Assembly (NCBI RefSeq): GCF_016903815.1
Contig: NZ_CP069973.1
DNA length: 64,000 nt
Reading direction: 5' to 3' (one strand)
DNA from: Escherichia coli
Lineage (GTDB): Bacteria; Pseudomonadota; Gammaproteobacteria; Enterobacterales; Enterobacteriaceae
Below are positions 30,024 through 30,994 of this stretch, in pieces. The translations under genes and the position numbers were made by a program. Below the pieces are notes generated by a model that was not told where the DNA came from, searched no databases, and saw only the letters and a program-made list of their open reading frames with translations. Every line of letters begins with the position of its first letter. The stretch's first letter is position 1.

Positions 30024-30117
30024 GCTCGCTTTAAAACATATCATGAAACTGGGTATGTTTTCTCTGCCTGCTCTGGGATCGCCGGGGCGGGCATTTTTTT
30101 GCATGAGACATAACGAA

Positions 30118-30902
<785 letters not shown>

Positions 30903-30933
30903 AAATATATCCTTCGGCTTTGCATGGATGATA

Positions 30934-30963
30934 ATTATACAGCGCATGTAACGCTAATGTCAT
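30934..30963 (-). promoter_or_regulatory. Candidate sigma-70 promoter of the antitoxin-toxin operon
   Basis: Minus strand: -35 ATGACA, 18-bp spacer, consensus -10 TATAAT; palindrome ATAATTAT overlaps the -10 and could be an autoregulatory operator. Confidence 0.45.
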
Positions 30964-30994
30964 TACAACAAAGATGCTACCCTGAAATAAAAAA

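Follow-up and report, generated by a model that had tools for sequence, protein, structure and literature searches.

The intergenic region at 30903-30990 of the window, the 64-kb stretch of Escherichia coli DNA analysed here, is most likely the ordinary autoregulated promoter and leader of a TacAT2-type toxin-antitoxin operon, with repression being predicted. The operon is encoded on the minus strand within a cassette, and it is probable that this cassette uses its own sigma-70 promoter, that translation of the antitoxin begins at the ATG at 30902, and that the operon is autorepressed by an antitoxin4:toxin2 (A4T2) complex, the putative binding site of which lies over the -35 hexamer. This predicted antitoxin operator is a 19-bp pseudo-dyad, GTAATGACA-T-TAGCGTTAC, located at 30966-30948 on the minus strand and recognized by its conservation among homologs. 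An earlier note on this DNA had placed the operator at a palindrome overlapping the -10; its promoter and its start codon are both likely right, but its operator is misplaced.

The TacAT2-Type Module and Its Cassette

The antitoxin gene (30609-30902, minus strand) encodes a 97-aa ribbon-helix-helix protein of the DUF1778/TacA type (Pfam PF08681, E = 1.2e-26), named a TacA family antitoxin by PGAP, and is followed by a gene encoding a 164-aa GNAT toxin (30118-30612, minus strand), assigned from Pfam GNAT domains and by PGAP. The start codon of the toxin and the TGA of the antitoxin overlap as ATGA (30612-30609), giving the overlapping DUF1778 antitoxin and GNAT toxin arrangement expected of a TacAT operon. 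The closest solved structure is PDB entry 7AK7, in which chain C matches the antitoxin with E = 1.2e-45 and chain A matches the toxin with E = 7.7e-76, far ahead of TacAT1, TacAT3 (PDB 6G96 being TacT3), KacAT and AtaRT. The entry contains four antitoxin and two toxin chains, and we take it to be the Salmonella TacAT2 complex of the depositors' paper. The module is thus closest to Salmonella TacAT2, and its toxin would be expected to arrest growth through acetylation of aminoacyl-tRNA and to be neutralised by the antitoxin. In Salmonella, this family has been associated with antibiotic persistence.

The likeness to Salmonella TacAT2 extends from the 97-aa antitoxin starting with MPAAN, the gene order and the gene overlap to the upstream region, where the conserved box, the -35 ATGACA, the 18-bp spacer and the -10 are all found. 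The two loci differ in chromosomal site, with the window copy lying between rne and flgL whereas Salmonella tacAT2 is flanked by an AraC-family gene and a PAP2 gene, and in the -10 hexamer, which is TATAAT in the window and TATGCT or TATACT in Salmonella. The Salmonella TacT2 toxin acetylates Gly-tRNA in vivo (PMC9177977).

The cassette is approximately 880 bp in length (window about 30100-30983). Of 5,426 complete genomes of E. coli, 685 carry it, the remaining genomes having the flanks only. Strains with an empty rne-flgL site carry approximately 62 bp of unrelated sequence in its place. The left junction lies at 30982-30983, where homology to the empty site stops after ...TTTTTTATTTCA, and the right junction, taken from the alignment of occupied and empty sites, lies at about 30100, immediately ahead of the flgL terminator. 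Upstream of the operon, the rne stop codon (31035, minus strand) is separated from the antitoxin ATG by 132 nt that include the rne intrinsic terminator, a hairpin at 31016-30993 on the minus strand with a 10-bp stem followed by TTTTATTT, the T-tract extending to about 30985. This hairpin has a dG of -21.2 kcal/mol (z = -4.9 against shuffles), is identical in the empty-site strain W12-1 and is common to E. coli without the cassette. Because empty-site homology ends after the terminator tail, at approximately 30983, the promoter belongs to the cassette and not to the rne flank.

At the opposite end of the cassette, the flgL terminator hairpin (window 30065-30093) is located just past the toxin stop codon; on the operon strand it is preceded by an A-run, and a T-tract after it is absent. 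The operon therefore has no dedicated canonical terminator, and it may depend on the shared flgL hairpin. A search of the intergenic region for structured RNA returned only Rfam matches far under threshold (E = 0.26 and 0.67).

Promoter and Antitoxin Start Codon

The promoter comprises a -35 hexamer ATGACA (30963-30958, minus strand), located within the left half of the predicted operator, and a -10 hexamer TATAAT (30939-30934, minus strand) 18 bp downstream. These match the sigma-70 consensus at 11 of 12 positions in a promoter scan, with hexamers near TTGACA/TATAAT and a spacer inside the 16-18 bp range. No other site on either strand of the 64-kb window scores at least 11/12, and when the 88 nt are dinucleotide-shuffled, only 0.35% of the shuffles attain such a score. 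The suboptimal 18-bp spacer counts against this reading.

When a single genome was scanned for each species, 66 loci encoding relatives were identified, from which 55 distinct upstream regions were compared. Their hosts include Enterobacterales, Xanthomonas, Marinobacter, Sphingomonas, Desulfobulbaceae and Acidobacteria, among others, and the genomic contexts are unrelated. The best sigma-70-like site is equally placed relative to the gene in approximately 50 of the 55 regions, typically as a -35 ATGACA separated by 17-18 bp from a -10 of the form TAnnnT, the -35 beginning 48-64 nt before the ATG. The near-consensus minus-strand promoter reported in the earlier note is therefore present, rare in shuffled sequence and kept in position across phyla; likewise, the palindrome, both candidate ATG codons and the rne terminator are all located where that note had put them. 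The predicted transcription start falls at 30925-30927 (minus strand), 7-9 nt past the -10, and from the sequence we infer that the favoured base is the A of a TCCA motif, which is kept as ATCCA in enteric homologs.

The ATG at 30902 is supported as a better start than an in-frame ATG further upstream (30947-30945, minus strand), which opens a longer reading frame (MRCIIIIH...), lies in the operator and spacer, and is probably unused. PGAP places the start of a 294-nt gene at ATG 30902 in three annotated genomes whose fetched stretch included the start, and the Salmonella antitoxin chain of 7AK7 reads MPAAN after two tag residues, giving the same first native residue as the product of ATG 30902. 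A Shine-Dalgarno-like AAGGA (30914-30910, minus strand) precedes this codon with 7 nt between them, and a GGAG or AGGA motif is equally placed before the conserved ATG in homologs, whereas the window sequence holds no Shine-Dalgarno sequence before ATG 30947. Among the 55 distinct upstream regions, every other-species homolog lacks an ATG at the corresponding position (-45), and in most homologs the frame is interrupted by a stop codon after the promoter and before the ATG. The preference in the earlier note for ATG 30902 is borne out by the PGAP call, the N-terminus of the crystallized chain and these in-frame stops, as is its remark that the upstream ATG falls inside the promoter, since that codon sits in the conserved box, upstream of the -10. 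The long reading frame from ATG 30947 was rejected, given the PGAP start at 30902 and the homologs from other species, which do not have that ATG and mostly have stops.

A Conserved Dyad over the -35

In a -35-anchored alignment of the upstream regions, a 19-bp box, GTAATGACA-N-nnnCrTTAC, stands out, with its best columns at 1.6-2.0 bits compared with 0.05-0.5 bits in the adjoining spacer. The family ideal of this dyad is GTAATGACA-N-TGWCATTAC, which overlaps both the -35 and the spacer. Because the left half contains the -35, part of the conservation is attributable to promoter function. However, conserved positions also include the GTA upstream of the hexamer and the C..TTAC within the spacer, regions in which sigma-70 makes no base-specific contacts. 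The box of the Bryobacterales homolog L067 is a perfect 19-bp palindrome, GTAATGACATTGTCATTAC, and near-perfect dyads are found at four further loci (L049, L050, L057 and L063). The window box has a perfect left half and a degenerate right half, which, as in most enteric homologs, agrees with the dyad at only 5-6 of 9 positions. In the Salmonella copy the pair of bases flanking the box is C..G where the window has T..A, preserving the symmetry. A dyad-symmetric site overlapping the core promoter, as expected of a ribbon-helix-helix operator, is thus found at this position.

The box is also matched to the protein that would read it. The antitoxin strand (K/R)R(E/D)(T/S)LN(L/I)RIKP is near-invariant wherever the box occurs, and in a Sphingobium homolog (L070, 47% identical) the beta-strand is different and the box is absent, such that the site appears to be inherited together with the antitoxin and to correspond to the residues with which the antitoxin reads DNA. 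Since the cassette contexts differ between hosts, the antitoxin is the only DNA-binding protein travelling with the box. Seven E. coli alleles differ at five intergenic positions (30924, 30943, 30944, 30968 and about 30982), all of which fall outside the 21-bp core, the promoter hexamers and the ribosome-binding site, a distribution that agrees with constraint but is not significant (about p = 0.16). At 30968, the T of the window allele completes an outer TTGTAA hexad, and five of the six other alleles carry C.

Variation in the box was also observed within one genome. Pectobacterium carotovorum carries two paralogous cassettes (L015 and L016) about 4 kb apart on one contig, with boxes GTAATGAGATAAGCTTTAC and GTAATGACATTAGCGTTAC, respectively, and the antitoxin of L015 has V at residue 12 where that of L016 has E. 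Such divergence in box and residue may keep the two operators insulated. A similarly divergent box occurs in Affinibrenneria (L048), with A at residue 12.

Relationship to relO and Other Characterized Operators

The operator region shares a 13-nt identity, TTGTAATGACATT, with relO of E. coli K-12 (window 30968-30956), and a text search with the box sequence returned, among toxin-antitoxin papers, a relB primer only. RelB binds four [A/T]TGT[A/C]A hexads in relO, and the RelB substitution R7A abolishes binding (PMC2812701). In the window, three perfect hexads of this type, TTGTAA (30968-30963), TGACAT (30962-30957) and TTACAT (30951-30946), occur within 23 bp (30968-30946), compared with a background of 1.47 per kb. 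The beta-strand of the antitoxin, S13-L-N-L-R-I18, aligns with SINLRI (residues 3-8) of RelB; the overall similarity has E = 0.18, and outside the strand it is undetectable.

Both operators are therefore built of [A/T]TGT[A/C]A hexads and paired with antitoxins carrying an S-(I/L)-N-L-R-I strand, and by analogy two adjacent dimers, aided by the toxin, would be expected on both. They differ in that relO has four hexads with half-sites 12 bp apart and overlaps the -10 of its promoter (PMC12301738), whereas the window operator has half-site centres 11 bp apart, includes one degenerate hexad and lies over the -35. The toxins of the two systems are also unrelated. Sites of the relO type consist of four contiguous hexads and tolerate no change in spacing (PMC2812701), while the window has three perfect hexads and one degenerate one, and the match of its antitoxin to the RelB family is confined to the six-residue strand. 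The window operator is thus predicted to work like relO, but it lies outside the relO operator family.

A relBE locus with an identical relO (K-12 L078, 1591-1609) was found in 1,246 of 5,426 genomes, and E. coli 7/2 (NZ_CP023820.1) carries both relBE and an rne-flgL cassette 100% identical to the window. With a 13-nt word and an S/T-N-R reading strand in common, RelB and the TacA2-like antitoxin might bind each other's operators, a speculative proposal that we regard as rather unlikely. If true, such cross-binding would tie together the expression, at the transcriptional level, of two systems whose toxins are unrelated, wherever a strain carries both.

Within the DUF1778-GNAT family itself, KacAT of Klebsiella and AtaRT of E. 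coli O157 share the A4T2 stoichiometry, and in both the complex places two ribbon-helix-helix dimers on one pseudo-palindrome in the promoter, with conditional cooperativity; KacA R12, which aligns with R17 of the window antitoxin, is needed for operator binding (PMC6698736). The KacA and AtaR antitoxins are distant from that of the window (E = 2e-7 and 6e-5, respectively), the reading residues being R8/D10/R12 in KacA and S13/N15/R17 here, and the KacA operator extends across the start of transcription whereas the window box covers the -35. The TacAT1 complex, from the same family, also autoregulates by binding its own promoter, at two sites, both located in the 81 bp that precede the ATG (PMC5449658). 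In contrast to the window, these two separable sites are accompanied by a repeated word GCTATACA and not GTAATGACA (L074); the window operator word was looked for and not found in the tacAT1 upstream regions of Salmonella and Klebsiella, both of which carry GCTATACA repeats. The Salmonella tacAT1 upstream region (L074, 545-610) contains an ATGACT -35-like hexamer and three GCTATACA/GCTATCA words, which fall within both intervals mapped by EMSA in the literature.

Alternative Explanations

The box could instead be a promoter element only, shaped by the -35 and its RNA polymerase context and bound by no repressor, with regulation exerted elsewhere or not at all. The -35 hexamer is indeed among the most conserved columns of the box, and the right half, in enteric homologs, pairs only weakly with the left (5-6 of 9). 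However, this reading, which we consider improbable, does not account for conservation of the bases on either side of the hexamer that sigma-70 does not read, nor for the dyads of distant homologs, which are perfect or match at 8 of 9 positions. It is further opposed by the match of the box to the operator word of an experimentally footprinted ribbon-helix-helix protein, and by the loss of the box in a homolog, L070, with a differing beta-strand. An operator at the -10, as proposed in the earlier note, is slightly less probable again. Repression would then act through blocked recognition of the -10, and operators over this element are common, relO being an example (PMC12301738); in TacAT1, a second binding site lies within the -46 to -6 interval (PMC5449658), and a wider stretch around the -10 and +1, TGTATrATTAnnATCCA, is retained in enteric homologs. 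The palindrome in question, ATAATTAT, does exist at 30938-30931, but it arises simply wherever TAT comes after TATAAT. The window has one perfect 8-bp palindrome per 292 bp, 35% of shuffles of the 88 nt contain one, and ATAATTAT contains no RelB-type hexads. It recurs in just two other homologs, both of which have a TATAAT -10 followed by TAT, while in Salmonella tacAT2 its counterpart is ATGCTTAA or ATACTTAA. At chance level and unconserved, it was rejected as the operator.

The remaining alternative holds that read-through from rne is the main source of expression, with translation from ATG 30947 and the promoter-like site being incidental. The operon is co-directional with rne at a short distance, and ATG 30947 is retained in all seven E. 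coli alleles. Read-through is possible in principle, though the rne terminator, with its T-tract, looks strong. As the principal mode of expression it is very improbable, given a promoter that is conserved among homologs in unrelated contexts, an upstream ATG with no Shine-Dalgarno sequence, and other-species homologs that have no ATG there and, in most cases, have in-frame stops. Autorepression from the -35 box, with translation from ATG 30902, is thus the preferred reading.

A second dyad, TG(G/T)ATA-N5-TATCCA, was observed over the -10 and +1 (window 30941-30925) in enteric homologs only, and in Brenneria roseae (L028) it is perfect, with 6-bp arms (TGGATA-N5-TATCCA). No RelB-type hexads were found in this dyad. 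It may be a second, weak operator, or merely start-site context, which would explain the retained ATCCA.

Proposed Mechanism of Autoregulation

In the preferred model, RNA polymerase would use the -35 ATGACA and -10 TATAAT to start near 30925-30927, translation would begin at ATG 30902, and translation of the toxin would be coupled to that of the antitoxin via the ATGA overlap. The operon would then repress itself through two ribbon-helix-helix dimers joined in an antitoxin4:toxin2 complex, seated on two 10-bp half-sites with centres 11 bp apart, on one face of the DNA and spanning 30967-30947. One of these half-sites, TGTAA|TGACA, is predicted to be strong and the other, TAGCG|TTACA, is degenerate. 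The bound complex would cover the -35 hexamer and block polymerase, and the pairing of a strong with a weak half-site would make repression dependent on the complex bridged by the toxin, in the manner of conditional cooperativity. Base recognition is probably as in RelB, because the RelB/relO system has this operator word and this DNA-reading beta-strand. Counting against an operator at the -35 is the placement of the relO and KacA operators elsewhere, over the -10 and the start site, respectively. By analogy with TacAT1, which has two sites, a second site near the -10 and +1 is possible.

Implications

The promoter of the window leaves the known picture of type II toxin-antitoxin operon regulation unchanged. 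What it adds is one promoter-operator unit that is carried with its cassette across several phyla, and reuse of the RelB/relO recognition word at another promoter position offers a small, clean example of a modular ribbon-helix-helix reading head. For E. coli, it assigns a start codon and a precisely located candidate operator that can be tested (30968-30946) to a TacAT2-type module present in about 1/8 of complete genomes.
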